Shown here: positions 4,998-41,977 of the stretch, in pieces
Position numbering within the stretch: position 1 is the first letter of the stretch
Layout of the letters: every line of letters begins with the position of its first letter
Source of the DNA: a virus
Taxonomy: Duplodnaviria; Heunggongvirae; Uroviricota; Caudoviricetes
Reading direction: 5' to 3' (one strand)
Length of the DNA stretch: 41,977 bases
IMG/VR virus record: IMGVR_UViG_2563366853_000004
Span: 1 to 41,977 of that record
Program-made: the position numbers and the translations under genes
The notes under the pieces: model-generated
Databases searched by the model: none
What the model saw: the letters and a program-made list of their open reading frames with translations, nothing else
Told to the model about the DNA's origin: nothing

Positions 4998-4998
4998 A

Positions 4999-5532: not shown

Positions 5533-6087
5533 CTACTCACCTCCGTTGATGCGAATGCCTGTTGCAATGCTGTTTATGATGCTGTCAGTGCATGGGGTAG
5601 AAAGCTGGGCATCTCCAGCAATTTTCATGACATCAACATCTGCATATCGAATACCGAGGTGTATCAGACCGGCTATACCTGACTTAAGCCGAGCATTTTC
5701 CATAAACAGATCCTTTGCCCGCTGTTTTTCTGCCTCAAGCTCAACGCGCAACTTCCCTACCGTTAACGCAATATCCTCGTTCTCCTGGTCGCGGCGTTTG
5801 ATGTATTGCTGGTTTCTTTCCCGTTCATCCAGCAGCGCCAGTACGGTAGCCGGATTGGCTGCGGCGATGAATTCAGCATTGGCCTGCTGTTCCATTTGGA
5901 AATCTTCATCGAAACCGCTTTCAGGATGTGCTCCTTCAATTCTGCAAATGGGAAGATATCCAACAACTTCACGATGAATTAACGCATCATCACAATCAAA
6001 TCGGCTCTCTCCATATTCGAGCGACCATACACCACACGTTGCTTTTTCTGCCTTGGCACGCAGTGCCTGATAGTCAATCTTGCTCAC
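5533..6087 (-). CDS. Ead/Ea22-like early protein
   Basis: N-terminus [21 protein letters not shown]… and the AEFIAAANPATVLALLDE motif recalled from the Ea22-like family. Confidence 0.6.
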   Translation of the reverse strand: MSKIDYQALRAKAEKATCGVWSLEYGESRFDCDDALIHREVVGYLPICRIEGAHPESGFDEDFQMEQQANAEFIAAANPATVLALLDERERNQQYIKRRDQENEDIALTVGKLRVELEAEKQRAKDLFMENARLKSGIAGLIHLGIRYADVDVMKIAGDAQLSTPCTDSIINSIATGIRINGGE

Positions 6088-6599
6088 TGGTTGCCTCCTT
6101 TGCGAAGTTTCGCGGCAAAATCAGCCGCAACCTCTTTGACCATATTGGAAAGCGGAGTGCCACCTCCGAATTTTTCTGAGAACATCTCCACGCCCTGTGC
6201 CCGCAGTTCCGACAGGAAAGCGTCGGTGGCTTGGGTTTCGATATCGTTAATTTCAGGAAGAATCTCTTCCCATGTAGCGATATCGCCATTCAAATGCCAT
6301 CCGGCAATTCCACTGGAGTTATCCGCAACACTGCGAACGGCTTCAATAGTTTCATGCATTGCCGCATTCTCCGCTGCCAGCGCCGAAAACTTCTCGTGTG
6401 CCAACTTAACAGCCGCATCAGCCTGCTTAATTGACTCAATCGCTTTCTGGTGGTCTTCGGACAGAGCCGAAATCTTGGCCTCCGCTTCAGCAAATTTACG
6501 CACCAGATATTCAGCGTTTGTTTCGTTAACCTTTAAATCTCGTGGGATGCATTTACCTTTCAGAAAACCATCCATCTCAATTAGTGACATTTGTTTCAT
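6084..6599 (-). CDS. Hypothetical coiled-coil protein
   Basis: ORF track gives a GTG start at 6617; an ATG at 6599 overlaps the upstream stop as ATGA; overlaps the downstream gene start. Confidence 0.5.
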
Positions 6600-6760
6600 T
6601 TCTTCCCACTCCGCCACATCGCATTCAGATATTTGTTTTGATTCACTGATGGAAACGAGTTTTGCTTAAGTAATTCCTCTCTCGATGGCATTGGCTTTAC
6701 GCGTTGGCGAATAATCATTTCTGCCGGAAGAATGCCGGGATTGTATGCAAGTCCTCTCAT
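6596..6760 (-). CDS. Small hypothetical protein (54 aa)
   Basis: Hand-translated ORF below the track cutoff, coupled by ATGA overlaps at both ends (6757..6760 and 6596..6599). Confidence 0.35.
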
Positions 6761-7038
6761 GATTTACTCTCAACGAACTGGTCAATAGCCATGCTAAGTG
6801 ACACACCTAAAGTCTCGATATGCTGCTGAATATCCTGTAGCGTCTGCGCCTGAGATAACAGGATTTCACGGTTGCATAACTCTTTAACCAGATGCTCAAA
6901 CTTGCTGTAATAACCGATACGACTTAGTGTTTCTTTCCCTGCATTCTCGCCTTCTTTGATAATTCCTCTTTCGCTAAGAATCAGATCGTGTTTGGTTCCG
7001 GTGATAACGTATTTGCCGAGGTCGATGTTTAGCTTCAT
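6757..7038 (-). CDS. Hypothetical protein
   Basis: 93-aa ORF in the leftward operon; not recognised. Confidence 0.45.
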
Positions 7039-7054
7039 TGTTAATTATTCCATG

Positions 7055-7369
7055 TTAATTTATTCGTATGCCTGCTCTTTCTTCATCGAGTTTTTTTAGC
7101 TTGTATCGCATAGCCCTTACTGAATAAATTGAGCGGCAGGTTGCAATTGCTATTTCTTCTGCGGAGAACTTACCGAAAAGTGATACTTCTGCTCTTGTCC
7201 AGCGTCTTCCACGAAGTCGGCTAACAATGTCAGCGCCAATCCTTGTTGCTTTCGCCATAACTGCTTTTTCAGTCCTTTCCAGTTTTTCAGCAATAACTTC
7301 AACTGGCATTGTCGCCGATACTTCGCGCAAGAAATCGACTTCCCATTTCTCCCATGGAGTCTTTTTCAT
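7055..7369 (-). CDS. Hypothetical protein
   Basis: 104-aa ORF in the leftward operon; not recognised. Confidence 0.45.
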   Translation of the reverse strand: MKKTPWEKWEVDFLREVSATMPVEVIAEKLERTEKAVMAKATRIGADIVSRLRGRRWTRAEVSLFGKFSAEEIAIATCRSIYSVRAMRYKLKKLDEERAGIRIN

Positions 7370-7380
7370 AGGCGATACCG

Positions 7381-7869
7381 TTATTTGATAAGAAGTGAAG
7401 GTTTCCCAACCTTGAGTTGAGCACCGGGAATATTTATTCCTGCTTTTAGTTGGTGCTTGATTGCCAGTTTGTCGGCTTTAATTGTCGTTTCAAACTCAAC
7501 GTATTCAGGAGGAAGGGCGCTTGAGTCGATTATTTCTACAATTTCTGACGGTTTGCGGATTGTTACCTGGTGAATACCTGCTCGAATATTTTTCTTGCCA
7601 ACCATTTCAAGCGATGACGCTATATATGATTTGATGCTGTCAATCTTATTTTGAATTACTGCGGCTCGCTCATTCAGTGACTTTGCCTCTTCCTTGAGGC
7701 GTTCGGCATAACCAGATTCATTTTTAATGACGGAAAGAAGTTGTTCTATTTTATCGGTAAATTCTCCTTCCATGCCTTCTATTGTGTCAGCAATCATCTC
7801 TGGTTCTAAATCTGAATCCATCAATTTTGCGTATTCATTGGCAATTTCATATAGTTTGCTCACTGGCAA
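7381..7869 (-). CDS. Siphovirus Gp157-like protein (RecT-associated)
   Basis: 162-aa translation resembles the Gp157 family usually found next to RecT-type recombinases; overlaps the recT 3' end. Confidence 0.55.
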   Translation of the reverse strand: MPVSKLYEIANEYAKLMDSDLEPEMIADTIEGMEGEFTDKIEQLLSVIKNESGYAERLKEEAKSLNERAAVIQNKIDSIKSYIASSLEMVGKKNIRAGIHQVTIRKPSEIVEIIDSSALPPEYVEFETTIKADKLAIKHQLKAGINIPGAQLKVGKPSLLIK

Positions 7870-8758
7870 CCTCCAGTTTCGCTTTGCATTCTATGTAAAT
7901 GGCTTGTACGTTCTGCTGCAATTTCATTCCAGATGTCAGGCGATATGCTTCTGCAAAATATCTCTTCAAATCATCCATGTTTTCAGCCTGAGCCATTTCA
8001 TCACAAAGAAGTTGTGCTTTTTCCGTTATTTCCTGCTGGCGTTTCCGTTCATCTTCGCGGATATCTTCCTCTGATTTATGCGGCATAACTGGTTCAGTCC
8101 ACACACCTTCTTCTTCGTTTAGTACGTGAATAGCACTATCAAGACGTGATGCCTTAGGCCAATACTTGCTTGCACGCTTTACGACCGTCTTTCGCGCCAT
8201 CTCATTCCAGTGATTTACCCATGGTCCTTTATCGCTGAATGCTGCCTTGCTTGTTTTCCTTACAGCCTCAATTTCAGCCAGACTCATCTCTTCCGTTAGA
8301 TAATCACCTGCTGGCGTCTTAACTGTGCAGTAAACGCCAACGATATCACCACGATCACCGAAGGCGTTGTATTTATGGGTTGGTGCTTTATCAAGCCCGT
8401 TTGACTCATAGGTATCGTTAGCATGAACAAGTTTTGCCTGACCCCATGAGATAACACCAGACTCCATTGCAATATGGAGCAATCCCATATAGCTGATATC
8501 AAGGCAAACCATGCCATCGCGCGGAACCAGATAAGCCAGTTTGCTTGCAGGGTTTAAGGTGATGCCGATCGCCGCAACATTGATGATGGCGTTCTGTGCG
8601 CTGGTTGGATTTGCCAGTGCTGTTTTAGCCAGGTAATCATTTTTCTGGAAATACTGAATTGCAAACTGGCTTTCCTTAGCCCATGTCACCGTCTGTTCAG
8701 TCAATGCTCCGCAGAATAACTGCTCCTGCTGTTTAACGAATTCAACGATATTGCTCAT
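7847..8758 (-). CDS. recT: RecT-family single-strand annealing recombinase
   Basis: 303-aa ORF; KGPWVNHWNEMARKTVVKRASKYWP resembles the conserved RecT segment NGPWVTHWEEMAKKTAIRRLFKYLP recalled from Rac RecT. Confidence 0.8.
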   Translation of the reverse strand: MSNIVEFVKQQEQLFCGALTEQTVTWAKESQFAIQYFQKNDYLAKTALANPTSAQNAIINVAAIGITLNPASKLAYLVPRDGMVCLDISYMGLLHIAMESGVISWGQAKLVHANDTYESNGLDKAPTHKYNAFGDRGDIVGVYCTVKTPAGDYLTEEMSLAEIEAVRKTSKAAFSDKGPWVNHWNEMARKTVVKRASKYWPKASRLDSAIHVLNEEEGVWTEPVMPHKSEEDIREDERKRQQEITEKAQLLCDEMAQAENMDDLKRYFAEAYRLTSGMKLQQNVQAIYIECKAKLEVASEQTI

Positions 8759-9066
8759 GCTGCTTCTCCATAAATGTGTCTGCGTTTGAATATTGCGAAG
8801 GCATATTCAGCCTTAACTCTTTCGGTTATTGCATCCCAGAACCATTCAGCGGCTTTTTCCTGATAGTTACAATCATCATCTTCCAGCCAGTCGATAGCGT
8901 CCTTAGTGTGTTCATCTGGTTTATATGAGCGAAGCATTTCGCTTATTGGGTCGCAACGTTTGCAGAGGCGATCAACTTCACTGTTGATTCGCTCGTAATC
9001 TTCATCAGTAAAACTTGCGATTATTTGCGATATTTCACGCTTATCATTCAGAGTCAGAATCATCAT
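8755..9066 (-). CDS. Hypothetical protein
   Basis: 103-aa ORF with AGGAG 4 nt upstream; stop overlaps the recT start (ATGA). Confidence 0.5.
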   Translation of the reverse strand: MMILTLNDKREISQIIASFTDEDYERINSEVDRLCKRCDPISEMLRSYKPDEHTKDAIDWLEDDDCNYQEKAAEWFWDAITERVKAEYAFAIFKRRHIYGEAA

Positions 9067-9147
9067 CTTTCTCCTGTTCTTTGTGCTGATTGAGCATTTT
9101 GTTCATCTGACGAATGAATTCTTCGTCTGACCAGTTATCTGTAAAAC

Positions 9148-9300
9148 TCATTTCCTGCGATACCACGGAAGGTTGATAGCTGATTTCATCGCTTTATTTG
9201 CTTCAAGCCACATTTTTGAATCACCAATAAATCTGGCTATTACTGCTTTGTTCTGTGCAGCACGAAGCATCTGGTGATTAATGGCTATTTCATTGCGCAT
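9148..9300 (-). CDS. kil: Kil-like host-killing peptide (candidate FtsZ inhibitor)
   Basis: Hand-translated 50-aa ORF with GAGG 7 nt upstream; the IARFIGDSKMW segment resembles my recollection of lambda Kil; sits just downstream of cIII as in lambda. Confidence 0.45.
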   Translation of the reverse strand: MRNEIAINHQMLRAAQNKAVIARFIGDSKMWLEANKAMKSAINLPWYRRK

Positions 9301-9410
9301 AATAAGACCTCAACTCTTTTCCATCCGTCACGTAATTTACTGGTGATTCGTTCAAGTAAAGATTCGGAAGGGCAGCCAGCAACAGGCCACCCTGCAATGG
9401 CATATTGCAT
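9285..9410 (-). CDS. cIII: CIII-like FtsH inhibitor with shortened, divergent C-terminus
   Basis: MQYAIAGWPVAGCPSESLLERITSKLRDGWKR matches the lambda CIII N-terminus and core; GGAG upstream of the ATG at 9410; ends after 41 aa versus 54 in lambda. Confidence 0.75.
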   Translation of the reverse strand: MQYAIAGWPVAGCPSESLLERITSKLRDGWKRVEVLLCAMK

Positions 9411-9631
9411 GGTGTGCTCCTTATTTATACATAACGAAAAACGCCTCGAGTGAAGCGTTATTGGTATGCATATAAAAAGGCCCTCACACTGGAGGGCAAA
9501 GAAGATTTCCAATAATCAGAACAAGTCGGCTCCTGTTTAGTTACGAGCGACATTGCTCCGTGTATTCACTCGTTGGGATGAATACACAGTGCAGTGTTTA
9601 TTCTGTTGTTAGTGCCAAAAATAAAGGCCGA

Positions 9632-10255
9632 CTATGCGGCCTCGGAAGGAAGTCCAATCATCTTATTCAAATCTTCTACCCGTAAAGCAGGAAGTGCTGT
9701 ACTTGCTTTATCTGCTTCTTTTGGTAGCAATTCTTTGCTTTCAGGCCAAACTTCAATAAGTCGCTTAACTGTTGTGACTGAGTTCAAAGCAGCCCATACA
9801 TTTGATTCGATATCCTTTTTCTTGGCTTCAAGTTTTTGTTGCAATGCGCAGATTTCATCAAACCTTTTTGTTATTTCGTGTTCTGCGCTAAACATGCATT
9901 TATCTTTGGTCGGAGTAGGGAGCAATATATCTTCGCCGTTGCCGTCTTTCCCATATGAATGCCATCCAACCCTTCTGCCAGATACAGTCAGATAAATTGA
10001 AGTAGAACTAACATCGTATGAGTAAAATGAACATCCCATCTTTTCAAGTTCTTCACTTATAGCTACCAACTTGGATGATAACTGATCCACTTCCTCAGTT
10101 TTCTTTTTACCGCCAAACGCAATAACTCTGGCGTCAAGTGCAAGCTGGTTCTTTAACTTTGTTACTTCTTCAAGTTCAGTGAAAACCCCAGACTTAATTA
10201 AAGCGTTACGAGCGATTTCCTCTTTCATTCTCGTAGTTAAGCGGATTGATGACAT
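9632..10255 (-). CDS. Hypothetical 207-aa protein immediately downstream of N, AT-rich
   Basis: GAGG 7 nt upstream of the ATG at 10255 (MSSIRLTTRMKEEIARNAL…); no TM segments or recognisable motifs; occupies the ral/sieB position of the pL operon. Confidence 0.6.
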   Translation of the reverse strand: MSSIRLTTRMKEEIARNALIKSGVFTELEEVTKLKNQLALDARVIAFGGKKKTEEVDQLSSKLVAISEELEKMGCSFYSYDVSSTSIYLTVSGRRVGWHSYGKDGNGEDILLPTPTKDKCMFSAEHEITKRFDEICALQQKLEAKKKDIESNVWAALNSVTTVKRLIEVWPESKELLPKEADKASTALPALRVEDLNKMIGLPSEAA

Positions 10256-10266
10256 ATTAATTCCTC

Positions 10267-10593
10267 TCAAATAAGTGGTTTGCTGCCTAATTTCATTTTC
10301 TGGCGACCAACACAAGTCACGCCCATTTCACTGCGTGGCTTGCTGTACCATGTGCGCTGATTCTTGCGCTCAATACGTTGCAGGTTGCTTTCAATCTGTT
10401 CGTGGTATTCAGCCAGCACCGTAAGGTCTATCGGATTCAGTGCGCTTTCTACTCGTGATTTCGGTTTGCGATTCAGCGAGAGAATAGGGCGGTTAACTGG
10501 TTTTGCGCTTACCCCAACCAACAGGGGATTTGCTGCTTTCCATTGAGCCTGTTTCTCTGCGCGACGTTCGCGGCGGCGTGTTTGTGCATCCAT
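10267..10593 (-). CDS. N: Antitermination protein N
   Basis: MDAQTRRRERRAEKQAQWKAANPLLVGVSAKPVNRPILSLNRKPKSRVESALNPIDLTVLAEYH… is lambda N with a few C-terminal differences. Confidence 0.95.
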   Translation of the reverse strand: MDAQTRRRERRAEKQAQWKAANPLLVGVSAKPVNRPILSLNRKPKSRVESALNPIDLTVLAEYHEQIESNLQRIERKNQRTWYSKPRSEMGVTCVGRQKMKLGSKPLI

Positions 10594-10703
10594 CTGGATT
10601 CTCCTGTCAGTTAGCTTTGAGTAACGCGCCGTGATGCTTATCTCCACGGTTGCTGTCTTGCAGCTGCATTTCGCGCTACTCAAAGCCTTCTGCTTTGAAT
10701 GCT

Positions 10704-10734
10704 GCCCTTCTTCAGGGCTTAATTTTTAAGAGCG
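10704..10734 (-). promoter_or_regulatory. nutL (boxA CGCTCTTAAAAA and boxB GCCCTGAAGAAGGGC on the leftward transcript)
   Basis: Reverse complement of 10704..10734 gives lambda boxA and the boxB hairpin upstream of N. Confidence 0.85.
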
Positions 10735-10860
10735 TCACCTTCATGGTGGTCAGTGCGTCCTGCTGATGGCTAAATAGTACGATTTGTACTTTATCGAGTC
10801 AATACAAAATGTTCTAAATATAATTGGTTTTTTATAACACTTTGTATTTAATGGGTTTAT
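10735..10860 (-). promoter_or_regulatory. pL/OL region (leftward early promoter with candidate operator half-sites)
   Basis: Lies between the cI terminator and nutL; contains the inverted repeat AGTACgatttGTACT; operator sequences differ from lambda, consistent with the different repressor N-domain. Confidence 0.45.
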
Positions 10861-10863
10861 ATT

Positions 10864-10897
10864 TTGGAAAAAGAAAACCCGACGCTAAGGTCGGGTT
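10864..10897 (-). terminator. Rho-independent terminator downstream of cI
   Basis: Hairpin AACCCGAC-gctaag-GTCGGGTT followed by a U-tract on the minus strand, about 30 bp after the cI stop. Confidence 0.6.
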
Positions 10898-10927
10898 ATT
10901 GTTGTGTGTTTTAGAGTGGTGAGGCTG

Positions 10928-11586
10928 TTAACTAAATGTCTCTTCAGGCCACTGGCTGGCGATAACTTTCCCTACTACGGAACAGCTATCATTGCATGGA
11001 ATCATTGGATATTGCGGGTTTAGTGGCTGTAGGAACACCTGACCGCTATCCCTGATCAGTTTCTTGAAGGTAAACTCGTCACCACCAAGTCTGGCTATGC
11101 AGAAATCACCTGGCTCAACAGCCTGCTCAGGGTCAACGAGAATTAACATCCCGTCAGGAAAGCTTGGCTTGGATCCTGTTGGCGCGGTCATGGAATTACC
11201 TTCAACTTCAAGCCAGAACGCACAATCACTGGCTTTTTTGGTTGTGCTGACCCATCTCTCCGCATCACCTTTGGTAAAGGTTCTAAGCTCAGGCGAGAAC
11301 ATCCCGGCCTGAACATGAGAAAAAACAGGGTACTCATATTGTTTTTTAACGGGGGCAGATGAGTATTCGCCAACAGGTGAAAATGTACCGTCGTGGTTGA
11401 ATGAGACGTTATCAATACCAAGGTATTTAAACACCACACCAATCTCGTCAAGAGATGGATGACGAGATCCGCGCAACCAGTGACCAATTCCACCCTGCGT
11501 CATACCAAGCTCTTCAGCTAACTTCTCTTGAGTTATGCCGAGCTCTTTCATTCTGGATCTAGCCAGTTCATACCATTTCATTTTCA
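10928..11586 (-). CDS. cI: CI-type repressor: lambda C-terminal domain fused to a non-lambda N-terminal HTH domain
   Basis: The C-terminal ~130 aa ([38 protein letters not shown]…[15 protein letters not shown]) are near-identical to lambda CI; the N-terminal ~95 aa ([37 protein letters not shown]…) are not. Start is 11586 or 11580. Confidence 0.85.
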
Positions 11587-11698
11587 TACCCTTATTATTA
11601 CGCTCTGTACTAAAACCATCCATGCACAAGATGTATTTTTTGTTTGCATTCTAAAAGTACATATCGTATTATTGTTTCATGGTTACTATGGAGGGCAT
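11587..11698. promoter_or_regulatory. OR/pRM/pR divergent promoter-operator region
   Basis: 112-bp AT-rich interval between divergent cI and cro, containing AGTAC-type motifs (AAAGTACATATCGTATT) similar to the OL side. Confidence 0.55.
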
Positions 11699-11914
11699 AT
11701 GAGCAACCTACGAAAATATCGAGAGTCACTGAATATCTCTCAAACAACACTTGCTAAGGCAGTTGGATGCACACAGGGAGCTATCGGACATTGGGAATCT
11801 GGTCGTCGCTTCCCAGACCTTAAAACATGCCGTGCTCTTGTTGAGTGCCTAAACAAGTTAGGCGCAAAAGTCAGTCTTGATGACGTGTTCCCGCCGGAAC
11901 ACAAAGCCGCTTAA
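11699..11914 (+). CDS. cro: Cro-like HTH repressor (XRE family, not lambda Cro)
   Basis: GGAGGG SD; MSNLRKYRESLNISQTTLAKAVGCTQGAIGHWESGRRFP… shares the TQGxIGHW helix motif with the CI N-domain. Confidence 0.8.
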   Translation: MSNLRKYRESLNISQTTLAKAVGCTQGAIGHWESGRRFPDLKTCRALVECLNKLGAKVSLDDVFPPEHKAA

Positions 11915-11922
11915 GACATTCC

Positions 11923-11955
11923 AGCTCTTACACATCCCAGCCCTGAAAAAGGGCA
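11923..11955 (+). promoter_or_regulatory. nutR (boxA GCTCTTACA, boxB GCCCTGAAAAAGGGC)
   Basis: Exact lambda boxB hairpin and boxA-like element between cro and cII; the tR1 region follows. Confidence 0.85.
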
Positions 11956-12033
11956 TCAAATTAAACCACACCTATGGTGTATGCATTTATTTGCATACAT
12001 TCAATCAATTGTTATCTAAGGAAATACTTACAT

Positions 12034-12327
12034 ATGGTTCGTGCAAACAAACGCAACGAGGCTCTACGAATCGAGAGTGCGTTGCTTAACAAAATCGCAA
12101 TGCTTGGAACTGAGAAGACAGCGGAAGCTGTGGGAGTTGATAAGTCGCAGATCAGCAGGTGGAAGAGGGACTGGATTCCAAAGTTCTCAATGCTGCTTGC
12201 TGTTCTTGAATGGGGCGTCGTTGACGACGACATGGCTCGATTGGCACGACAAGTTGCTTCGATTCTCACCAATAAAAAACGCCCGGCGGCAACCGAGCGT
12301 TCTGATCAAATCCAGATGGAGTTCTGA
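12034..12327 (+). CDS. cII: Transcriptional activator CII
   Basis: [75 protein letters not shown]… is lambda CII. Confidence 0.95.
12042..12055 (-). promoter_or_regulatory. pRE CII-binding site (TTGCGTTTGTTTGC) within the cII 5' end
   Basis: Minus-strand TTGC-N6-TTGC repeat at the same position as lambda pRE. Confidence 0.75.
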
Positions 12328-12359
12328 GGTCATTACTGGATCTATCAACAGGAGTAATT

Positions 12360-12506
12360 ATGACAAAACAACTCAGTCCTTACCAGGACAAAATTCACAA
12401 ACACATACTACGTGATCGCTTCCTGTCCAGCTTCAAGCAGCCTGGTCGATTCCGGGCTGAGTTGGAAAAAGTGAAGCTGATGCAGAAGGAGAAAGGTCAT
12501 GAGTAA
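12360..12506 (+). CDS. Small hypothetical ORF between cII and the replication initiator
   Basis: Hand-translated 48-aa ORF with CAGGAG upstream; overlaps the O-like gene start; uncertain. Confidence 0.3.
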
Positions 12507-13359
12507 TCTTGCAACCGTAACACATTTAAGGCCTTCACAACGGCCTGTGGAGCGTTGTGTGGCAGAAGTTGAAGATGGTTATACCCGTCTTGCAAATGCC
12601 CTGTATGAAGAGCTTATCGGCGCTGATTTAACGAAAAATCAGAGCAAGGTTGCCCACGCCATATGCCGTAAAACATACGGCTACGGTAAAAAGATGGATC
12701 GCATCTCTGATAGTCAGTTAGCTCAAATTACCAGGCTGCCAAGACAGAAGGTAAACAAGGCCAAGAATGAGCTTATCGCGATGAAGGTTATCCTTCGCGA
12801 AGGCCAGCAAATCGGGCCTAACAAGAACATCGAGGAATGGCAAATCGAAGGATGTCACTACACTGGTGATAATGTCACTGCATTGGTGACAAAAAGTGTC
12901 ACCAAAACGGTGACAGCGCTGTCACCAAAACAGGGACACACAAAAGAAACTATTACAAAAGAAAAAAGAAATAATAAAAACACTATGTCCGAAAGTGTTC
13001 GGACGGAGTGTGAAAAATCACCTGACCGTCACGAAGAAACCGACAAGGCATTCGAGGAAATATTCTGGTGTGCAGGCATGCGAAAAGCCGGGAAGAAAAA
13101 CGCAGCTTCAGCATTCAGAACACAGTTCAGGGAATGGCGTAAAACTACAAGGGGTACGGCAAGCGAGTTTGCCACGATGCTGGCAGAAGACATCGCATGC
13201 AGGAATGGTAAGCAGTTCGGATTCGACAGGTTGTTACCATCGAGCTACCTGAACGGTCAGCGCTGGAACGACGAAAAGCCAGAAACCATTCAACCACAAT
13301 CCAAACCATCATCCGCAATCACCGTATCGAAAACTGGCTACGTGTTTTTCGACAGGTGA
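12499..13359 (+). CDS. O-like replication initiator (iteron-binding)
   Basis: 286-aa ORF at the lambda O position with the replication origin embedded in mid-gene, as in lambda O; sequence is not lambda O. Confidence 0.7.
12853..12990. repeat. Replication origin: four ~19-bp iterons plus an AT-rich tract
   Basis: TGTCACTACACTGGTGATA, ATGTCACTGCATTGGTGACA, AGTGTCACCAAAACGGTGACA, GCTGTCACCAAAACAGGGACA in tandem, then an A-rich stretch (AAACTATTACAAAAGAAAAAAGAAATAATAAAAACACT). Confidence 0.75.
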
Positions 13360-13466
13360 ACCATGAAATCAAAAATCAAATCGCTACTGGTCGCTGGTTA
13401 TAACCACGGCTGGTTAAGTATTTCGTTTGTCGATTTCTGGTTTAAAAATCTCAATCTGAGGGAATC

Positions 13467-15347
13467 ATGACGCCAAGTGAACTTAGCGACCTGCTTTGGG
13501 CGCAGGTTGACAGGGTGGCTCCGCACCTGTTGCCAAACGGCAAGAAAGAGGGGCATGAGTGGGTTGCCGGTAACGTCAACGGTGACAAGGGAAACAGCCT
13601 TAAGGTCAACCTTAGCGGCAAGAAAAAATGGGCTGATTTCGCTGAGGGAGACGGCGGTGACATGCTTGATTTGTGGATGTCATGTCGTGGAATTAACCTG
13701 CATCAGGCTATGCAGGAAGCGAAAGCATTTCTCGGTATCAAGGATGACGATCACCATTTCGATGCCAAACGTGAGAAGAAATTCTCCAGACCTGATCGCA
13801 AGAAAATCGCCCGCTACGTTACCAGAACAGAATCCCATCTTGAGTACCTGCAATCGCGTGGCATATCGCCAGAAGTCGTAAAGCGCTACGAGGTTGTCAG
13901 CGGCAAGGTGTGGAATGGAGAGCGGGAACTGGATGCTCTGGTGATTCCGTACAAACGCGATGGTGAGTTGTTGCAGGTCAAGCGAATCAGCACTGAGCGC
14001 CCGGACGGGAAGAAAGTCATTATGGCAGAAGGTGATTGCGAACCTTGTCTGTTCGGATGGCAGGCTCTGGACGCTGGCGTGAGGGCGGTTGTACTTTGCG
14101 AAGGCGAAATTGATTGTATGAGCTATGCGCAATACGGCATCTCGGCGTTATCCGTGCCGTTTGGTGGCGGGAAAGGCGCTAAGCAGCAGTGGATTGAGTT
14201 TGAGTATCACAATCTCGACAGGTTTGAGGAAATATTCATCTCGATGGACGTTGATGATGTTGGTCGTGAAGCCGCAAGGGAAATCGCAAGCCGACTCGGT
14301 GAACATCGTTGCCGTCTTGTTACTCTGCCGTACAAAGACATCAACGAATGCCTGATGAACGGTGTTACCGAGGATGAAATCTGGCAGTACATCGGCACGG
14401 CATCCTACTTCGATCCTGAAGAACTCTACAGCGCGCGAGAGTTTTACCAGGACACTATCAACGCTTTCTACGGCAAGCAGCAGTATCTGTTTAATCCACC
14501 GTGGGAATCTCTGGCAGATAAATTCCAGTTCCGTGAGGCCGAGTTGACGCTGGTCAATGGTGTGAACGGTCACGGAAAAACGGAGGTTGTCGGGCATATG
14601 GCACTTGAGGCAATGCGTCAGGGTGTGAAGACGTGCATCGCGTCACTTGAGCTGAAGCCAGGCATTCTCCTTAAGAGACTTACCCGTCAGGCGACGTGCT
14701 GCAAGATGCCGCCAGTGCTGGAAATTGACTCTGCATTTAAATTTTATGACGAAAGACTTTGGGTGTTTGGCCTGACCGGAACGGCGAAAGCCGACAGGCT
14801 GATCGAAATATTCGACTACGCTCGCCGCCGATACGGCATCCAGTTATTCATCATCGACAGCCTGATGAAATGTGGCATAGGCGACGATGACTATAACGGG
14901 CAGAAAGCGTTTGTTGACTCGATTTGCGATTTCAAAAACAAAACAAACTCCCACGTCATTCTCGTTACTCACTCGCGAAAAGGTGACAGCGAAGAAAAAC
15001 CAACCGGGAAAATGGACGTAAAAGGCTCTGGAGCGATAACAGACCTGACAGACAACCTTTTCATCATCTGGCGTAACAAGGCTCGCGAGAGAGCGTTACA
15101 GAGAGTTCAGAGTGGTGAAAAGATGTCAGAGAAGGACGAACAGCTACTGGCATCTCCGGCATCTGTTTTGATGCTTGAAAAACAACGTAACGGCGAAGGT
15201 TGGGAAGGTGGTGTCCCGTTGTTCCTTGACGAGCAATCGCACCAGTTCCTGCAACTTGAATCAGGATCGCCATATAGCTACATCGCCAATATGCCGAAAT
15301 CGGAATATGACGAGGCGTGGCGACAGGAAAACGTGACGGAGTATTAA
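13467..15347 (+). CDS. Bifunctional DNA primase (Toprim) and DnaB-like replicative helicase
   Basis: 626-aa ORF with GAGGG SD; N-terminal acidic motifs (VVLCEGEIDCMSY…ISMDVDDVG) suggest Toprim; C-terminal Walker A-like GVNGHGKTE and Walker B-like LFIIDSLM suggest a DnaB/RecA-fold helicase. Replaces lambda P. Confidence 0.75.
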   Translation: MTPSELSDLLWAQVDRVAPHLLPNGKKEGHEWVAGNVNGDKGNSLKVNLSGKKKWADFAEGDGGDMLDLWMSCRGINLHQAMQEAKAFLGIKDDDHHFDAKREKKFSRPDRKKIARYVTRTESHLEYLQSRGISPEVVKRYEVVSGKVWNGERELDALVIPYKRDGELLQVKRISTERPDGKKVIMAEGDCEPCLFGWQALDAGVRAVVLCEGEIDCMSYAQYGISALSVPFGGGKGAKQQWIEFEYHNLDRFEEIFISMDVDDVGREAAREIASRLGEHRCRLVTLPYKDINECLMNGVTEDEIWQYIGTASYFDPEELYSAREFYQDTINAFYGKQQYLFNPPWESLADKFQFREAELTLVNGVNGHGKTEVVGHMALEAMRQGVKTCIASLELKPGILLKRLTRQATCCKMPPVLEIDSAFKFYDERLWVFGLTGTAKADRLIEIFDYARRRYGIQLFIIDSLMKCGIGDDDYNGQKAFVDSICDFKNKTNSHVILVTHSRKGDSEEKPTGKMDVKGSGAITDLTDNLFIIWRNKARERALQRVQSGEKMSEKDEQLLASPASVLMLEKQRNGEGWEGGVPLFLDEQSHQFLQLESGSPYSYIANMPKSEYDEAWRQENVTEY

Positions 15348-15428
15348 ATGACCATCTACATCACTGAGCTGATAGCAGGCCTGCTGGTAATCGCAGGCCT
15401 TTTTATTTGGGGGAGAGGGAAGTCATGA
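15348..15428 (+). CDS. Tiny hydrophobic ORF (26 aa)
   Basis: [26 protein letters not shown]; start abuts the upstream stop (TAAATG) and its stop overlaps the ninB start; uncertain. Confidence 0.25.
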   Translation: MTIYITELIAGLLVIAGLFIWGRGKS

Positions 15429-15865
15429 AAAAACTAACCTTTGAAATTCGATCTCCAGCACATCAGCAAAACGCTATTCACGCAGTACAGCAAATCCTTC
15501 CAGACCCAACCAAACCAATCGTAGTAACCATTCAGGAACGTAACCGCAGCTTAGACCAGAATCGAAAGCTTTGGGCTTGCCTTGGTGACGTCTCTCGTCA
15601 GGTTGAATGGCATGGTCGCTGGCTGGATGCAGAAAGCTGGAAGTGCGTTTTTACAGCAGCATTAAAGCAGCAGGACGTTGTTCCTAACCTTGCCGGGAAT
15701 GGCTTTGTGGTAATAGGCCAGTCAACCAGCAGGATGCGTGTAAGCGAATTTGCGGAGCTATTAGAGCTTATACAGGCATTCGGTACAGAGCGTGGCGTTA
15801 AGTGGTCAGACGAAGCTCGACTGGCTCTGGAGTGGAAAGCAAGATGGGGAGACAGGGCGGCATGA
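15425..15865 (+). CDS. ninB: NinB (Orf-family recombination mediator)
   Basis: [56 protein letters not shown]… matches lambda NinB. Confidence 0.9.
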
Positions 15866-16038
15866 GACGACAGCGACGAAGTATCACCGACATCATCTGC
15901 GAAAACTGCAAATACCTTCCAACGAAACGCTCCAGAAATAAACGCAAGCCAATCCCAAAAGAATCTGACGTAAAAACCTTCAACTACACGGCTCACCTGT
16001 GGGATATCCGGTGGCTAAGACATCGTGCGAGGAAATGA
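15862..16038 (+). CDS. ninD: NinD
   Basis: [52 protein letters not shown]… matches lambda NinD; ATGA coupling to ninB. Confidence 0.85.
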
Positions 16039-35013: not shown

Positions 35014-35508
35014 TTATTTTATAGTTTTTATGAATTCTTTATTAAATCCCTTCGCTTCTCCGGGGTATCTTCCGAAGACAATTTTTATAAAAACAGAAAA
35101 AATAAAGATAGCAACGCTTAACAACAATTGCAGTATCATTGGAACCCAAAGAACTACAGGCTCTATATTCATGAAACCAAATATTCTTCCGGCGATCATG
35201 GCGAAGTACCACACTGTTATCAGCAAACTTAGTGGCATATGAATTACTGATATTACCAATCCAAGAGCATCAGTAATTCTGTTTTCAAATTTTTCAGGGG
35301 AAAACTTTTCTTTAAGGTAATTCAGTGCGCAGGCCTCATTCTCTGGATTTTCAGCATTTTTCCCTATAGCAATAGAAATCTCAGATATCCTTGATTCAAT
35401 TCTTTTACGTTTAATAAAACTAGAAAAAAAGAACCACGCAATCTGCAACCCTATCCCCAGAAATAGAGTTGCGGCAACTAGCACAGCGTAACTCATAGAA
35501 TCAGACAC
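35014..35508 (-). CDS. AT-rich three-TM inner-membrane protein; candidate SieA-like superinfection-exclusion protein
   Basis: AGGAGG 6 nt upstream of GTG 35508 (alternative ATG 35496); hydrophobic segments [41 protein letters not shown] and [24 protein letters not shown]; opposite strand to the late operon, at the P22 sieA position. Confidence 0.5.
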
Positions 35509-35538
35509 ACCAACCTCCTTAGTTTTGCGCAGGATACC

Positions 35539-35904
35539 ATGAAAAAAGTTAACATTGGAAACGTACCAAAGATGCTCGTTCCGCTCTTTGAGAGCGGTAC
35601 AATTGTGTTTTGTAGAGACTTTCCAGAATGGCAACGCCTGCATCAAAAACTTGGCGTTGACGTGCATGACTCGGACGCCAACGGAGCGTCTCATACAATG
35701 AGTAGCGAGAATGGTGTTTTGCATGTGATAGGCGTGTTCAATGGCAAACTATCTACTATTGCCCATGAGTGCGCTCACATGGCATTCGATATCTGCTCAA
35801 GGGTAGGTGTTGATGTTGAACCAGGAAGAGCCAACGAGACTTACTGCTACTTAATGAGCAGGCTTGTTGAGTTCTGCGAGCGACATATCAAAAAGCCGGA
35901 GTGA
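35539..35904 (+). CDS. Small HExxH-motif protein (putative Zn-metallopeptidase-like)
   Basis: 121-aa ORF containing [10 protein letters not shown]; its stop lies within a bidirectional terminator hairpin. Confidence 0.5.
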
Positions 35905-35930
35905 CCCGGCTTGATTATTACTTTTTGCTG
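35893..35930. terminator. Bidirectional intrinsic terminator between the HExxH gene and the convergent small gene
   Basis: AAGCCGG-agtgac-CCGGCTT hairpin flanked by T-tracts on both strands. Confidence 0.55.
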
Positions 35931-36097
35931 TCTGGAGTTCGCTTATCCAATACCCAGCCATGACCTGGCTTTGTTGTTGGTGGAAGCCTTTCGTTGTCCT
36001 TGACGGTTGCAAAATTGTCTTTCTTACCGCCGCGTGGGCCAACTTCTTGGTATATTCCGCCGTTTTTTCCTGTGTTTTCACCTGGTTTTTTCGCCAT
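35918..36097 (-). CDS. Small Gly/Lys-rich hydrophilic protein (59 aa)
   Basis: GAGG 6 nt upstream of the ATG at 36097 (MAKKPGENTGKNGGIYQEVGPRGGKKDNFATVKDNERLPPTTKPGHGWVLDKRTPDSKK); possible own promoter (TTGACT … AATATT) at about 36110..36150. Confidence 0.5.
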   Translation of the reverse strand: MAKKPGENTGKNGGIYQEVGPRGGKKDNFATVKDNERLPPTTKPGHGWVLDKRTPDSKK

Positions 36098-36187
36098 GAT
36101 ATACCTCAACATACACCCGTTATTGGGCGATTAAATATTGATCTCATTTTATAAGTAGTCAATATGGCCCAGGTAAATGCAAAAATT

Positions 36188-36211
36188 AACCCACCTTCAG
36201 GTGGGTTTTTT
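36188..36211. terminator. Hairpin terminator at the mnt 3' end (possibly bidirectional)
   Basis: AACCCACC-ttca-GGTGGGTT followed by TTTTTG; overlaps the mnt stop codon. Confidence 0.5.
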
Positions 36212-36448
36212 GTACAAATCCTTCAGCGTATCAAACACCATCTTCTTAACAAGCTCTGACTGCTCATCAGCGATGCGTTCCGCATCGTCTCGATAGCCTG
36301 AAATTTTGGATGGCTTTGATACAGCATCAGTCACTATCTGAACTAATTCTGAATTAAGAGAGCGGCCATTGGATTTGGCTCGCTGTTTTAGTTTTTCCTT
36401 TAATTCGTAAGGTAGCCGCAGATTAAATTGCGGGTCATCTCTTCCCAT
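36197..36448 (-). CDS. mnt: Mnt-type ribbon-helix-helix repressor (P22 immI)
   Basis: MGRDDPQFNLRLPYELKEKLKQRAKSNGRSLNSELVQIVTDAVSKPSKISGYRDDAERIADEQSELVKKMVFDTLKDLYKK closely matches P22 Mnt as recalled. Confidence 0.85.
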   Translation of the reverse strand: MGRDDPQFNLRLPYELKEKLKQRAKSNGRSLNSELVQIVTDAVSKPSKISGYRDDAERIADEQSELVKKMVFDTLKDLYKKPT

Positions 36449-36511
36449 TCTTGATGCCTCGCTTTTGTGAGTGGATCGGCATCTTATTATCTGCTGGTTG
36501 CATCCTCAATA

Positions 36512-36526
36512 AGACCACAGTGGTCT
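36512..36526. promoter_or_regulatory. Candidate Mnt operator (perfect palindrome AGACCAC-A-GTGGTCT)
   Basis: 15-bp palindrome between mnt and the tailspike start, similar in form to the P22 Omnt sequence as I recall it. Confidence 0.5.
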
Positions 36527-36594
36527 CTTTGTTTGATTAATAATGCATCACTGTGGCAATGCTGCGGCGATTCCTTGTATCTGGAGCAAATTAA

Positions 36595-39540
36595 ATGACA
36601 GACATTACAGCCAATGTTGTAGTGAGTATGCCTTCGCAACTCTTCACTATGGCGCGTTCTTTTAAAGCCGTAGCCAATGGCAAAATTTATATCGGTAAAA
36701 TTGACACTGACCCGGTAAATCCTGAAAACCAGATTCAGGTTTATGTAGAGAACGAAGACGGTTCTCACATTCCTGTTTCGCAACCAATAATCATTAACGC
36801 TGCTGGATATCCGGTATATAACGGACAGATTGCCAAATTCGTAACCGTGCAAGGCCATTCTATGGCTGTTTATGATGCGTATGGTACACAGCAGTTCTAT
36901 TTTCCGAATGTGCTGAAGTATGATCCTGATCAGTTACGACAGCAATTAGAAGACCCAGATGGAGCGAATAAATACCCAAAACTTCAGATAGCAAGATGGA
37001 GAGACAGTTATGATGTAAGAGGTTGGGGGGCTATTGGTGATGGTGTTCATGATGATACATCAGCTCTATCAGAATTACTTTCTGTTGCAACAGGTGGTGA
37101 AAAGATAGATGGGCGAGGGCTTACTTTTAAAGTATCAACTCTTCCAGATGTCAGTCGATTTAAAAATGCTCGTTTTTTATTTGAGAGAATACCGGGTCAG
37201 CCTCTTTTTTATGCTTCTGAAGATTTTATCCAAGGAGAGTTATTTAAAATTACAGATACACCGTGGTACAACGCCTGGACGCAGGATAAAACGTTTGTAT
37301 ATGACAATGTCATCTATGCGCCTTTTATGGCTGGAGACCGCCATGGTGTAAATAACCTCCATGTTGCATGGGTTCGCTCAGGAGATGACGGGAAGACCTG
37401 GACAACGCCGGAATGGCTTACAGATTTACATGAAAACTATCCCACAGTTAACTATCACTGCATGAGTATGGGGGTTGTCAGAAATCGCCTTTTTGCTGTA
37501 ATTGAGACGCGGACCGTGAGCGGAAATAAACTGCAGGTTGCAGAGTTGTGGGATCGCCCAATGAGTCGCAGCCTTCGCGTTTATGGTGGTATAACGAAAG
37601 CAGCAAATCAGCAAGTCGCTTATATTCGCATTACTGATCACGGATTATTTGCTGGTGATTTTGTCAACTTCTCAAACTCTGGTGTTACAGGTGTTACCGG
37701 GAATATGACGGTGACTACTGTCATTGATAAAAATACTTTTACAGTTACGACGCAAAATACCCAGGATGTGGATCAGAATAACGAGGGTAGATACTGGAGT
37801 TTTGGTACATCATTTCACTCGTCACCATGGAGAAAAACCAGTCTTGGAACTATTCCTTCTTTTGTTGACGGAAGCACTCCTGTTACTGAGATTCACAGTT
37901 TTGCGACGATTAGCGATAACAGTTTTGCTGTTGGCTACCATAATGGTGATATTGGTCCACGCGAGCTTGGGATACTCTATTTCTCTGATGCTTTCGGTTC
38001 TCCTGGTAGCTTTGTTCGCAGACGCATACCTGTAGAATATGAGGCGAATGCATCTGAGCCATGTGTAAAATATTATGATGGCATTCTGTATCTGACGACC
38101 AGGGGGACATTAAGTACTCAACCCGGTAGTTCATTGCACAGAAGCTCTGATTTAGGTACATCATGGAATTCTCTTCGCTTCCCAAATAATGTTCATCACT
38201 CAAACCTTCCTTTTGCCAAAGTTGGCGATGAGCTGATTATTTTTGGCAGTGAGCGCGCATTTGGTGAGTGGGAAGGAGGAGAACCTGATAACCGTTATGC
38301 AGGAAATTATCCAAGAACATTTATGACCAGAGTTAACGTCAATGAGTGGAGTCTGGATAATGTAGAGTGGGTTAATGTTACTGATCAGATTTATCAGGGC
38401 GGAATAGTTAACTCTGCGGTTGGTGTTGGTTCAGTTTGTATCAAAGACAACTGGCTGTACTACATTTTCGGTGGGGAAGACTTTCTAAACCCATGGAGCA
38501 TAGGGGATAACAACAGAAAATATCCTTATGTTCACGATGGTCACCCGGCTGATTTGTATTGTTTCAGGGTGAAAATTAAACAGGAAGAATTTGTTTCAAG
38601 GGATTTTGTCTACGGAGCCACTCCTAACAGAACGCTTCCTACTTTTATGTCGACGTCAGGCGTGAGGACGGTTCCTGTACCCGTTGATTTCACAGATGAT
38701 GTTGCCGTCCAGTCACTGACTGTCCATGCAGGTACATCAGGACAAGTTCGCGCGGAAGTCAAACTTGAGGGTAATTACGCCATTATTGCGAAGAAAGTAC
38801 CGTCTGATGATGTTACCGCTCAGAGATTAATCGTTAGCGGAGGTGAAACAACGTCTTCAGCAGATGGTGCAATGATAACGTTGCATGGTTCCGGAAGCAG
38901 TACTCCACGTCGCGCGGTATATAACGCACTCGAACATCTTTTTGAGAACGGAGATGTTAAACCTTATCTTGATAATGTAAATGCTCTTGGTGGTCCGGGA
39001 AACAGGTTCTCGACAGTTTATCTTGGCTCCAATCCTGTGGTTACCAGTGACGGAACATTAAAGACAGAGCCGGTCTCTCCTGACGAAGCATTGCTGGATG
39101 CCTGGGGTGACGTCAGGTATATCGCTTATAAATGGCTGAACGCTGTCGCTATAAAGGGGGAAGAAGGGGCGAGGATACATCATGGTGTAATCGCGCAGCA
39201 ACTTCGTGATGTTCTTATTTCTCACGGACTCATGGAAGAAGAAAGCACAACATGCCGCTATGCCTTTCTTTGCTATGACGATTATCCCGCAGTATATGAT
39301 GACGTCATTACTGGCCAAAGGGAAATGCCGCTGACTGATAATGACGGGAGCATCATTGTTGATGAGGATGATAATCCAGTGATGGTAATGGAAGACATCA
39401 TTGAGCGCGTTGAAATAACGCCAGCAGGATCTAGATGGGGGGTCAGACCTGATCTCTTATTCTATATCGAGGCGGCATGGCAGCGCAGAGAAATAGAAAG
39501 AATAAAAGCTAGGTTAGACTTAATAGAAGGGAAGCACTAA
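36595..39540 (+). CDS. Tailspike: P22-type N-terminal head-binding domain, endosialidase-like catalytic region, C-terminal intramolecular chaperone domain
   Basis: N-terminus [58 protein letters not shown] matches the conserved P22 tailspike N-domain; the central region is unlike P22 gp9 and its endosialidase assignment is from memory of CUS-3/K1F; the last ~160 aa resemble the self-cleaving chaperone domain with a candidate cleavage motif VVTSDGTLK. Confidence 0.8.
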
Positions 39541-39684
39541 ATGTTTCGTTGGCGTCAAAAATATGAACTGCTCACATAAAGAAGTAAGTACATTGGCAAA
39601 AAATATTGACGTCAACGAAATTAAATATAAAACATCATGCAGACATATTACCAATATTAATATAAGGTAATAAAAATATAATTT

Positions 39685-39711
39685 ACAAAAAAGCCCGTTG
39701 GAAGCGACGGG
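39685..39711 (-). terminator. Intrinsic terminator oriented against the tailspike gene
   Basis: GCCCGT-tggaagcg-ACGGGC followed by TTTTTTG on the minus strand. Confidence 0.5.
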
Positions 39712-39968
39712 CATTAACCGCGGTAATGGATAAATTATTAATGTTTTTAGATTGTGAACGATATCATATTGTGCGGAAGTAGTGAAGTAACCATGTAAAA
39801 TGATTGTTTCATAGCCTATGAGACACACAAGGCTTTGTGCTCTTCGATAGTTGTTAAGGCGGATCACTCTACATTCTCATCAAGCCAATCCGCCCACCAC
39901 TGCATCATTTCTCTGCGCTTATCGAGATACTGAGCATGGTTGTAAATTCAACTAACCAAGTCCGTTGA

Positions 39969-40011
39969 CAAAAAATTAGCGCAAGAGGACAAAAAATCAC
40001 CTTGCGCTAAT
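39969..40011 (-). terminator. sib/tI: int retroregulation hairpin and terminator
   Basis: Perfect 11-bp inverted repeat ATTAGCGCAAG / CTTGCGCTAAT with 15-nt loop, followed by TTTTTTG on the minus strand, directly outside the P arm of attR; matches lambda sib/tI as recalled. Confidence 0.75.
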
Positions 40012-40156
40012 GCTCTGCCTCAGGTCACTAATACTATCTAAGTAGTTGATTCATAGTGACTGGATATGTTGTGTTTTGTAGTATTATGCAGTCTATTATT
40101 TAGACTAAATCTTTCATAACATATTGATATTTACAGTGTTTTCTGTTTCTCGTTCA

Positions 40157-40171
40157 GCTTTTTTATACTAA
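40157..40171. repeat. attR common core GCTTTTTTATACTAA, preceded by the lambda P arm
   Basis: Exact core repeat; upstream sequence (…CAGGTCACTAATACTATCTAAGTAGTTGATTCATAGTGACTGGATATGTTGTGTTTT…) matches the lambda P arm; downstream CTTGAGCGAAACGGG is the host attB arm. Confidence 0.9.
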
Positions 40172-40846: not shown

Positions 40847-41977
40847 ATGAAACGCGCATATAAATACCGGTTTTACCCGACAACTGAGCAGGCTGAGCTT
40901 TTAGCTCAGACGTTTGGCTGTGTGCGCTTCGTCTACAATTCCATCCTTCGTTGGCGTACCGATGCGTACTACGAGCGAAAAGAAAAGATCGGTTATCTAC
41001 AGGCCAACGCTCGCCTTACGGCGCTCAAAAAAGAGCCTGAATACATATGGCTGAATGATGTTTCCTGCGTTCCCCTCCAGCAGTCGTTGCGCCACCAACA
41101 AGCCGCCTTTGCTAACTTCTTTGCCGGACGAGCTGCATATCCGGCTTTCAAAAGCAAACGGCACAAACAGGTGGCTGAGTTCACTGCCAGCGCGTTTAAA
41201 CACCGTGACGGCGAGTTGTATATAGCAAAGAGCAAGTCGCCGCTGGATGTTCGCTGGAGTCGAGAATTACCATCTGCGCCGTCAACCGTTACCATTTCCA
41301 GAGATAGCGCTGGCAGGTACTTTGTTTCCTGCCTGTGTGAGTTTGAACCTGTATCAATGCCTGTTACCGCTAAAACGGTCGGCATTGATGTGGGCTTAAA
41401 AGATTTATTCGTCACCGATACCGGATTCAAAACCGACAATCCCCGCCACACCGCTAAATATGCGAAGCGATTAACGCTGCTACAGCGACGTTTAAGCAGG
41501 AAGCAAAAAGGCTCAAGAAACCGAATTAAAGCCCGCTTAAAGGTCGCCCGACTCCACGCGAAAATCGCCGATTGCCGGATGGACAATCTGCACAAGTTGT
41601 CCCGCAAACTGATTAACGAAAACCAAGTTGTTTGCGTCGAATCCCTCAAGGTGAAAAACATGATCCGCAACCCGAAGCTGTCTAAAGCAATAGCTGACGC
41701 AGGCTGGAGCGAACTTGTTCGCCAGCTCCAGTACAAAGGCAAATGGGCCGGGCGGTCAGTGGTCGCCATTGACCAGTATTTACCGTCCTCAAAATGCTGT
41801 AGTTGCTGCGGTTTCACCATGCAAAAAATGCCTCTTAATGTTCGTAAATGGCACTGCCCTGAATGCGGCGCAGACCATGATCGCGACATTAACGCGGCAC
41901 GTAATATTAAAGCTGCCGGGCTGGCAGTGTTAGCCCACGGAGAGCCTGTAAACCCTGAATCGCAGCACGCGGCTTAG
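40847..41977 (+). CDS. tnpB: TnpB (IS200/IS605-family OrfB; RuvC-like RNA-guided endonuclease)
   Basis: 376-aa ORF with N-terminal MKRAYKYRFYPT, RuvC-I-like GIDVGLKD, C-terminal zinc finger CCSCC…CPECG and RuvC-III-like DHDRDINAARNI; no tnpA nearby. Confidence 0.85.
   Translation: MKRAYKYRFYPTTEQAELLAQTFGCVRFVYNSILRWRTDAYYERKEKIGYLQANARLTALKKEPEYIWLNDVSCVPLQQSLRHQQAAFANFFAGRAAYPAFKSKRHKQVAEFTASAFKHRDGELYIAKSKSPLDVRWSRELPSAPSTVTISRDSAGRYFVSCLCEFEPVSMPVTAKTVGIDVGLKDLFVTDTGFKTDNPRHTAKYAKRLTLLQRRLSRKQKGSRNRIKARLKVARLHAKIADCRMDNLHKLSRKLINENQVVCVESLKVKNMIRNPKLSKAIADAGWSELVRQLQYKGKWAGRSVVAIDQYLPSSKCCSCCGFTMQKMPLNVRKWHCPECGADHDRDINAARNIKAAGLAVLAHGEPVNPESQHAA

Follow-up and report, generated by a model that had tools for sequence, protein, structure and literature searches.

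The endosialidase tailspike gene and its domains

The window analysed here is a stretch of phage DNA of 41,977 nucleotides, and the tailspike gene occupies positions 36595 to 39540 on its plus strand. The gene forms one unbroken open reading frame with an ATG start (stop codon included in the coordinates) and encodes 981 residues, with a computed precursor mass of 109.3 kDa. It is an endosialidase tailspike gene of the siaK1/CUS-3 type: compared to siaK1 of CUS-3 (CP000711), the nucleotide identity is 98.9% and 971 of the 981 residues are identical, so that 99% identity to a characterised enzyme is established. The gene for the RefSeq protein WP_001519616.1 from Escherichia coli CUVET21-PYO5 is 100% identical at the nucleotide level, and full-length copies are found in 181 of 5426 complete E. 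coli genomes.

An earlier note on this DNA had described the product as a P22-type anchor joined to an endosialidase-like body and a C-terminal chaperone, and Pfam and PDB sequence searches show all three. In Pfam, all six expected domains were found in the canonical order, each above its curated cut-off; both the GH58 endosialidase domains and Peptidase_S74, which the note had named for a profile search, were matched. The domain architecture can therefore be considered established. The head-binding (particle-anchoring) domain of the P22 gp9 type covers residues 1-113 (36595-36933, plus strand, as for all domains below) and is matched by PF09008 (Head_binding) over 113 of 113 positions (E 1.5e-66). 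In the PDB search, residues 1-118 match the N-termini of the tailspikes of Sf6 (7SG7, E 4e-67) and P22 (2VKY, E 5e-53). This bears out the assignment of the first ~115 residues to the P22 gp9 particle-binding domain, as well as the statement that the remainder is unlike gp9, since the similarity to the P22 and Sf6 tailspikes ends at about residue 118. Residues 114-145 (36934-37029) form the linker and junction between the anchor and the endosialidase: the similarity to P22 and Sf6 stops at about residues 115-118, and that to K1F starts from residue 145/146. For phage Gally, with another P22-like tailspike, the nucleotide similarity is limited to nucleotides 1-449 of the window gene.

The endosialidase body starts with an N-terminal extension (residues 146-212, 37030-37230; PF12218 End_N_terminal, E 8.9e-37), which is followed by the catalytic six-bladed beta-propeller of GH58 (residues 213-662, 37231-38580; PF12217 End_beta_propel, E 3.1e-233). 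A lectin-like beta-barrel is inserted in the propeller (residues 324-406, 37564-37812; PF12195 End_beta_barrel, E 1.2e-46), and a stalk completes the body (residues 663-817, 38581-39045; PF12219 End_tail_spike, E 7.5e-78). The C-terminal intramolecular chaperone, or Peptidase S74 domain, comprises residues 818-981 (39046-39537), with the PF13884 match at residues 818-878 (E 1.6e-10, cut-off 22 bits). Residues 145-817 match the K1F endosialidase in the PDB (1V0E/3GVL) with E = 0 and ~1050 bits, and residues 781-979 match the C-terminal chaperone construct of endoNF (3GW6, E 9.4e-70). The last ~160 residues thus are the K1F-type chaperone domain that had been suggested, and the C-terminal motifs quoted for it do exist (VVTSDGTLK, from residue 815). 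The fold can be regarded as settled by sequence identity to solved structures.

Active site and predicted chaperone cleavage site

Residues 146-817 share 65.5% identity with endoNF (1V0E) over 672 aligned positions. In endoNF, the catalytic residues are reportedly Glu581, Arg596 and Arg647 (Stummeyer, 2005); this numbering is supported by the 3GVJ chain, which contains an Ala at the position of R647. In the mapping onto 1V0E, E581, R596 and R647 are aligned to E488 (codon 38056-38058), R503 (38101-38103) and R554 (38254-38256) of the window protein, all on the plus strand, and H350 is aligned to H250. The conservation of these residues is established, and the body that had cautiously been called endosialidase-like is a true member of the GH58 endosialidases, in which all three catalytic residues of endoNF are kept. 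Two other positions differ: K410 of endoNF is replaced by Gly and Q853 by Met. Both may be substrate-contact positions. As the active CUS-3 enzyme has both residues as in the window protein, no conclusion is drawn from these changes. Endolytic cleavage of alpha-2,8-polysialic acid is predicted for the window allele; the activity is annotated for the 99%-identical CUS-3 protein only.

The putative cleavage site lies at the border between the stalk and the chaperone. S818 (39046-39048, plus strand) is aligned to an Ala in 3GW6, and K823 (39061-39063, plus strand) to the Lys five residues downstream. The Ala probably is the S911A substitution, as the cleavage dyad of endoNF is reported to be S911/K916 (Muhlenhoff, 2003; Schulz, 2010). 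In the crystals of mature endoNF, the chains stop at the residue aligned to T817. Autoproteolytic release of the S74 domain is predicted to yield a mature subunit of 90.6 kDa (up to T817) and a fragment of 18.7 kDa (residues 818-981). The latter is larger than the ~17 kDa given in the earlier note, and this figure has to be corrected.

From these elements, a scheme for the action of the tailspike may be proposed. By analogy with the endoNF literature, three 109 kDa chains would fold and form a trimer, with the S74 domain as template both for trimerisation and for the folding of the stalk. Once the stalk is folded, S818 would cut the T817-S818 bond with K823 as base, as suggested by the conservation of the dyad and by the way the site aligns to endoNF. 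This cut would free the 18.7 kDa fragment and leave a kinetically stable mature subunit of 90.6 kDa. Through its head-binding domain, the trimer would dock on a tail hub of the P22 type. At the capsule, the active site of the propeller (E488, R503 and R554) would cut alpha-2,8-polysialic acid endolytically, and the virion could tunnel through to the outer membrane.

The prophage and its probable host

The lambda att core GCTTTTTTATACTAA has two exact matches in the window, at 1331-1345 and at 40157-40171, with 0.12 expected by chance. The first is the attL core, which is adjoined by a lambda-type Int (with arm-binding domain) and Xis, both with intact open reading frames. The second is its partner, the attR core (plus strand), preceded by a lambda-like P arm with similarity to the attP regions of 434, HK97 and lambda. 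The prophage is flanked by ybhC on the left and by ybhB on the right, and its early region encodes lambdoid N, a cI-like repressor, a cro-like protein, cII and O. Taken together, the att cores, the flanks, Int and Xis and the early genes indicate a whole lambdoid, P22-like prophage of ~38.8 kb at att-lambda, of which the tailspike gene is the last gene. This genomic setting is established here. The late region is 99.955% identical to that of CUVET21-PYO5, where PGAP annotates the P22 capsid family, gp4, gp10, the needle knob and the ejection proteins. Through the annotation of the same region, the P22-type tail hub genes needed for docking, for gp4, gp10 and the gp26 needle, are also found to be present. 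The former description of a lambda-regulated, P22-like particle fits both halves of the prophage: the lambdoid integration and early genes are encoded, and the late region is of the P22 type by the CUVET21-PYO5 annotation.

Upstream of the tailspike gene, a repressor gene of the Mnt/Arc family (mnt, 36197-36448, minus strand) adjoins a region with the palindrome AGACCACAGTGGTCT (36512-36526), which lies between mnt and the tailspike start. The palindrome, which may resemble the operator of P22 Mnt, is a candidate Mnt-type operator. A scan for sigma-70 promoters from 36.1 to 40.3 kb gave 11 matches, compared to 10.6 in shuffled sequence; as the matches are no commoner than in shuffled sequence, no promoter is claimed.

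Downstream, the window contains the traces of a different integration system. Positions 39622-39947 align to positions 1591-1266 of CUS-3 with 99.7% identity, and within this block the 84 nucleotides from 39864 to 39947 (minus strand) are the 3' remnant of an integrase gene of the CUS-3/IntS type, annotated by PGAP as an incomplete coding sequence without its N-terminus. A single copy of the 11-mer TAAATATAAAA (39622-39632) stands where CUS-3 has its neuO cassette. In the alignment to CUS-3, this 11-mer flanks neuO on both sides as a direct repeat; the two HSPs with CUS-3 meet at it with an overlap, and the ~843-bp cassette enclosed by the repeat is precisely what the window lacks. The AAGACTC repeat array of neuO was sought across the window and none was found.

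The window tailspike is almost certainly the K1 endosialidase tailspike of a temperate, P22-like phage of the CUS-3 type with K1-encapsulated E. coli as its host. The specificity of the tailspike for K1 is predicted from the 99% identity to CUS-3 siaK1: in the GenBank record of CUS-3, the product is named an endosialidase tailspike protein, and endo-alpha-sialidase activity is assigned to it under the direct-assay evidence code IDA, with reference to PMID 16689790. For the window allele itself, catalysis, processing and host range are predictions from sequence, and the capsule status of the host is deduced from proxy genomes. To this end, the K1 loci were read in CUVET21-PYO5 and MS20659, the genomes that come nearest to the window in the late region and the flanks. 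Both contain kpsFEDUCS, neuS-E-C-A-B-D and kpsTM, all beside yghD. The annotation gives an intact locus for CUVET21-PYO5 and, for MS20659, a frameshift in the gene that lies between neuS and neuC. The early region of the window (3.8-16 kb) was matched contiguously in none of the 5426 complete genomes. Only 329 of these 5426 genomes contain neuS, and at least 13 further named tailspike carriers are found among 60 listed genomes of the 329. Several other carriers of the tailspike gene are named K1 strains, among them S88, APEC O1, CE10 and O2:K1 APEC. The K1 polysialic-acid specificity predicted in the earlier note is thus in line with both the identity to siaK1 and the K1 loci in the genomes with the nearest prophages.

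Two other readings of the gene have to be weighed. In related prophages damaged copies do occur (the tailspike gene of phiv205-1 is split by an IS element), and some RefSeq copies are annotated only as a partial 'endosialidase catalytic beta-propeller domain-containing protein' or 'peptidase S74', but it is very improbable that the window gene is likewise the decaying relic of a defective prophage without a working tailspike: its open reading frame has the full 981 residues of CUS-3 with the catalytic and dyad residues intact, the prophage retains both att cores and intact Int and Xis reading frames of lambda, and CUVET21-PYO5, whose late region is 99.955% identical, is annotated there with a full complement of virion genes of the P22 type.

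The second reading concerns the ten substitutions between CUS-3 and the window tailspike, namely V9I, P43T, I59V, T98A, P121T, A207V, V480A, G767R, T807I and A832T. Five of the ten are located in the anchor or the linker, and none affects a catalytic or dyad residue or H250. That this drift from CUS-3 has moved the specificity to another polymer of sialic acid (e.g. O-acetylated polysialic acid or the alternating alpha-2,8/2,9 polymer of K92) would be compatible with a prophage without neuO, whose lysogen would not O-acetylate its capsule, yet such a shift is extremely unlikely, as the substitutions are conservative and scattered, half of them in the anchor or linker, with E488, R503, R554 and H250 untouched, and as the K1 neu clusters of the nearest host genomes are of the ordinary kind and include a gene for an alpha-2,8-polysialyltransferase.

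A K1 endosialidase tailspike of the CUS-3 type therefore remains the preferred reading. As the prophage would be specific for the K1 capsule, its presence may mark a K1 or recently K1 lineage. The endosialidase is a known tool for the removal or detection of polysialic acid. The discovery value of the finding is small, and its use lies in correct annotation.

Comparison with known tailspikes and their carriers

The architecture of the chimera, its enzymology and the modular exchange of the receptor-binding body among P22-like, T7-like and other podophages were published from 2005 to 2010 and are standard review material. The tailspike must be considered already known in view of its near-identity to CUS-3 siaK1, the RefSeq copies and a review from 2017. 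The proposal of a chimeric tailspike is correct; the chimera has been known since the 2006 paper of Stummeyer et al., who are credited for the CUS-3 tailspike chimera in this review (PMC5380687). According to the same review, the N-terminal domain is common to CUS-3, HK620, Sf6 and P22, and the catalytic domain of the CUS-3 endosialidase is common to K1F (PMC5380687). In the earlier note, the protein was not recognised as the published CUS-3 tailspike.

The tailspikes of P22 (gp9), Sf6 (gp14) and HK620 contain a head-binding domain homologous to residues 1-113 of the window protein. Past residue ~118, however, they continue into right-handed beta-helix bodies that hydrolyse O-antigen, without S74 and without similarity to the window protein. 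The opposite is observed in endoNF of the lytic phage K1F (1V0E, 3GVJ-L and 3GW6). Here, the GH58 body and the S74 chaperone are the same, with the Glu/Arg/Arg triad, H350 and the Ser-Lys dyad kept, while the K1F body is joined to a T7-type tail by a different N-terminal domain (PMC5380687). In comparison to endoNF, the window protein has a 7-residue insertion at residues 423-429.

A third combination is seen in the tail fibre of vB_EcoP_ZX5 (QTH80017.1), a Uetakevirus resembling epsilon15. Its body and chaperone are near-identical to those of the window tailspike, with 99.5% identity over nucleotides 522-2914 and 811 of 847 residues identical over the aligned part, and it shows the same endosialidase and S74 domains in Pfam. 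Its N-terminus of ~190 residues, however, is unrelated and lacks Head_binding, and its type of virion differs. It is the comparison of tailspikes that truly supports modular exchange: judging from these sequences, the same body is found on a P22 anchor, on a T7-type anchor (K1F, PMC5380687) and on the unrelated N-terminus of ZX5.

Base composition had also been put forward in favour of a horizontally acquired receptor-binding module. It is correct that the tailspike gene (GC content 0.440) is AT-richer than the virion genes at 21-35 kb (0.486) and than the whole prophage (0.468). The low GC content does not, however, mark the acquired module: it is lowest in the head-binding part (0.420), intermediate in the endosialidase body (0.437) and highest in the chaperone (0.467), and the region ahead, at 35-37 kb around mnt, has values of 0.41-0.42, below that of the tailspike gene. 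The low GC content as a sign that the receptor-binding part alone was imported was consequently rejected, and GC content makes a weak argument for horizontal acquisition, given that the conserved anchor is no less AT-rich.

The closest known system is CUS-3 itself. Its siaK1 product (ABQ88383.1/CAJ29292.1) has the same length of 981 residues and the same three modules, and its gene likewise closes the late operon of a P22-like prophage. The DNA block common to both begins 47 bp before the tailspike gene and ends 92 bp after it. At the nucleotide level, ~37% of the window prophage (~14.4 kb) aligns to CUS-3. The two differ in what follows the tailspike gene: in CUS-3, after siaK1 come the neuO cassette, which is phase-variable, an integrase of the IntS type and an att site at argW, an arrangement in line with King et al., who in 2007 reportedly described neuO as a poly-psi contingency locus downstream of siaK1, together with the IntS-type integrase and integration at argW. 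Unlike CUS-3, the window prophage lacks neuO, retains only the 84-nucleotide integrase stub and contains the Int, Xis and att site of lambda. This context is the only mildly new point. Tentatively, the carrier may be an undescribed recombinant, in which the IntS/argW system of CUS-3 was swapped for Int, Xis and attP of lambda with a breakpoint in the old integrase gene, without neuO and maybe with the Mnt-operator-like palindrome before the tailspike gene; the body with 99.5% identity in an epsilon15-like phage might then reflect a very recent exchange across genera.

Both arrangements recur among complete E. coli genomes. The classic one (argW, IntS and neuO) is found in 147 of them, the att-lambda arrangement in about 24. 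The latter group includes members with neuO (e.g. IAI39 and CE10 O7:K1) and without it (e.g. CUVET21-PYO5, MS20659, 998 and Ecol_AZ159), and neuO as a proxy for the carriage of 'CUS-3' would miss the neuO-less prophages at att-lambda. The same neuO-less layout at att-lambda as in the window prophage is found in vB_EcoP-720R6 (GenBank).

Downstream junction and neuO

In CUS-3, the K1-specific temperate phage, neuO is flanked on each side by the 11-mer TAAATATAAAA, whereas the window contains one copy without neuO. The contingency cassette is absent from the region downstream of the tailspike gene (39541-40171), precisely at this single copy (39622-39632). Further downstream, an 84-nt stub of a CUS-3-type integrase gene is found on the minus strand (39864-39947), followed by a lambda-like attP arm. 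The segment 39828-39947 is similar both to the 3' end of the CUS-3 int gene and to the stretch that precedes attP in phages of the 434/lambda type. Because both match there, this segment is likely a recombination joint.

At least three downstream layouts of the endosialidase tailspike can be observed in complete E. coli genomes. The first combines argW/IntS with neuO (147 genomes), the second att-lambda with neuO (e.g. IAI39 and CE10), and the third att-lambda without neuO (e.g. CUVET21-PYO5 [NZ_CP116948.1] and MS20659). Carriers of this last layout would escape surveys in which neuO is taken as equal to CUS-3 carriage.

Upstream region with possible cargo, and early region

The immI-like region (36197-36594), which separates the tailspike from the final ejection-protein gene, contains a single gene, encoding an Mnt/Arc-family repressor (36197-36448, minus strand); neither arc nor ant is present in this region. 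Between mnt and the tailspike ATG lies the perfect palindrome AGACCACAGTGGTCT (36512-36526), which looks like a candidate Mnt-type operator. Upstream of mnt, three small ORFs of unassigned function are located (35014-36112): a predicted membrane protein (35014-35724, minus strand) and a 121-aa ORF (35539-35904, plus strand), both without a Pfam match, and a 64-aa ORF (35918-36112, minus strand) with a weak similarity to YjzC that falls under the Pfam cut-off. Given their position, they may represent lysogenic-conversion or exclusion cargo.

In the early-left operon, an ORF with a full-length match to Nmad5 (nucleotide modification associated domain 5, E 1.6e-71) adjoins the lambda-type N gene (9632-10315, minus strand). 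The early region as a whole (3800-16000) is a mosaic: among 5426 complete E. coli genomes, none contains it in contiguous form, and the best coverage is 73%. The late region is 99.955% identical to that of CUVET21-PYO5. By these two observations, the early and late halves of the prophage differ in their histories.

Host flank

A complete gene for an IS200/IS605-type TnpB (RNA-guided endonuclease family) lies between ybhB and bioA (40847-41977, plus strand). The same gene order is found in CFT073- and E2348/69-type genomes, so this gene is assigned to the host rather than to the prophage. Compared with MS20659, the chromosome of CUVET21-PYO5 carries a large inversion, apparently centred on the replication origin; in CUVET21-PYO5 the pheV/kps island (~0.89-0.95 Mb) is reversed in orientation and cai/fix are located at 4.34 Mb.

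The endosialidase module in other phages

In the APEC prophage record phiv205-1 (MN340231, 1344-6739), the same tailspike gene is interrupted by an insertion with transposase genes; what remains is a head-binding fragment of 72 aa, with the body in an ORF of its own.

The epsilon15-like Uetakevirus vB_EcoP_ZX5 (MW722083) encodes a tail fibre of 1039 aa (1803-4922). Its endosialidase body and S74 domain share 99.5% nucleotide identity with nt 522-2914 of the window's tailspike gene, whereas its N-terminus (~190 aa) is unrelated. This N-terminus is a third adaptor type on one endosialidase and S74 module, which implies that the module was exchanged recently across genera.
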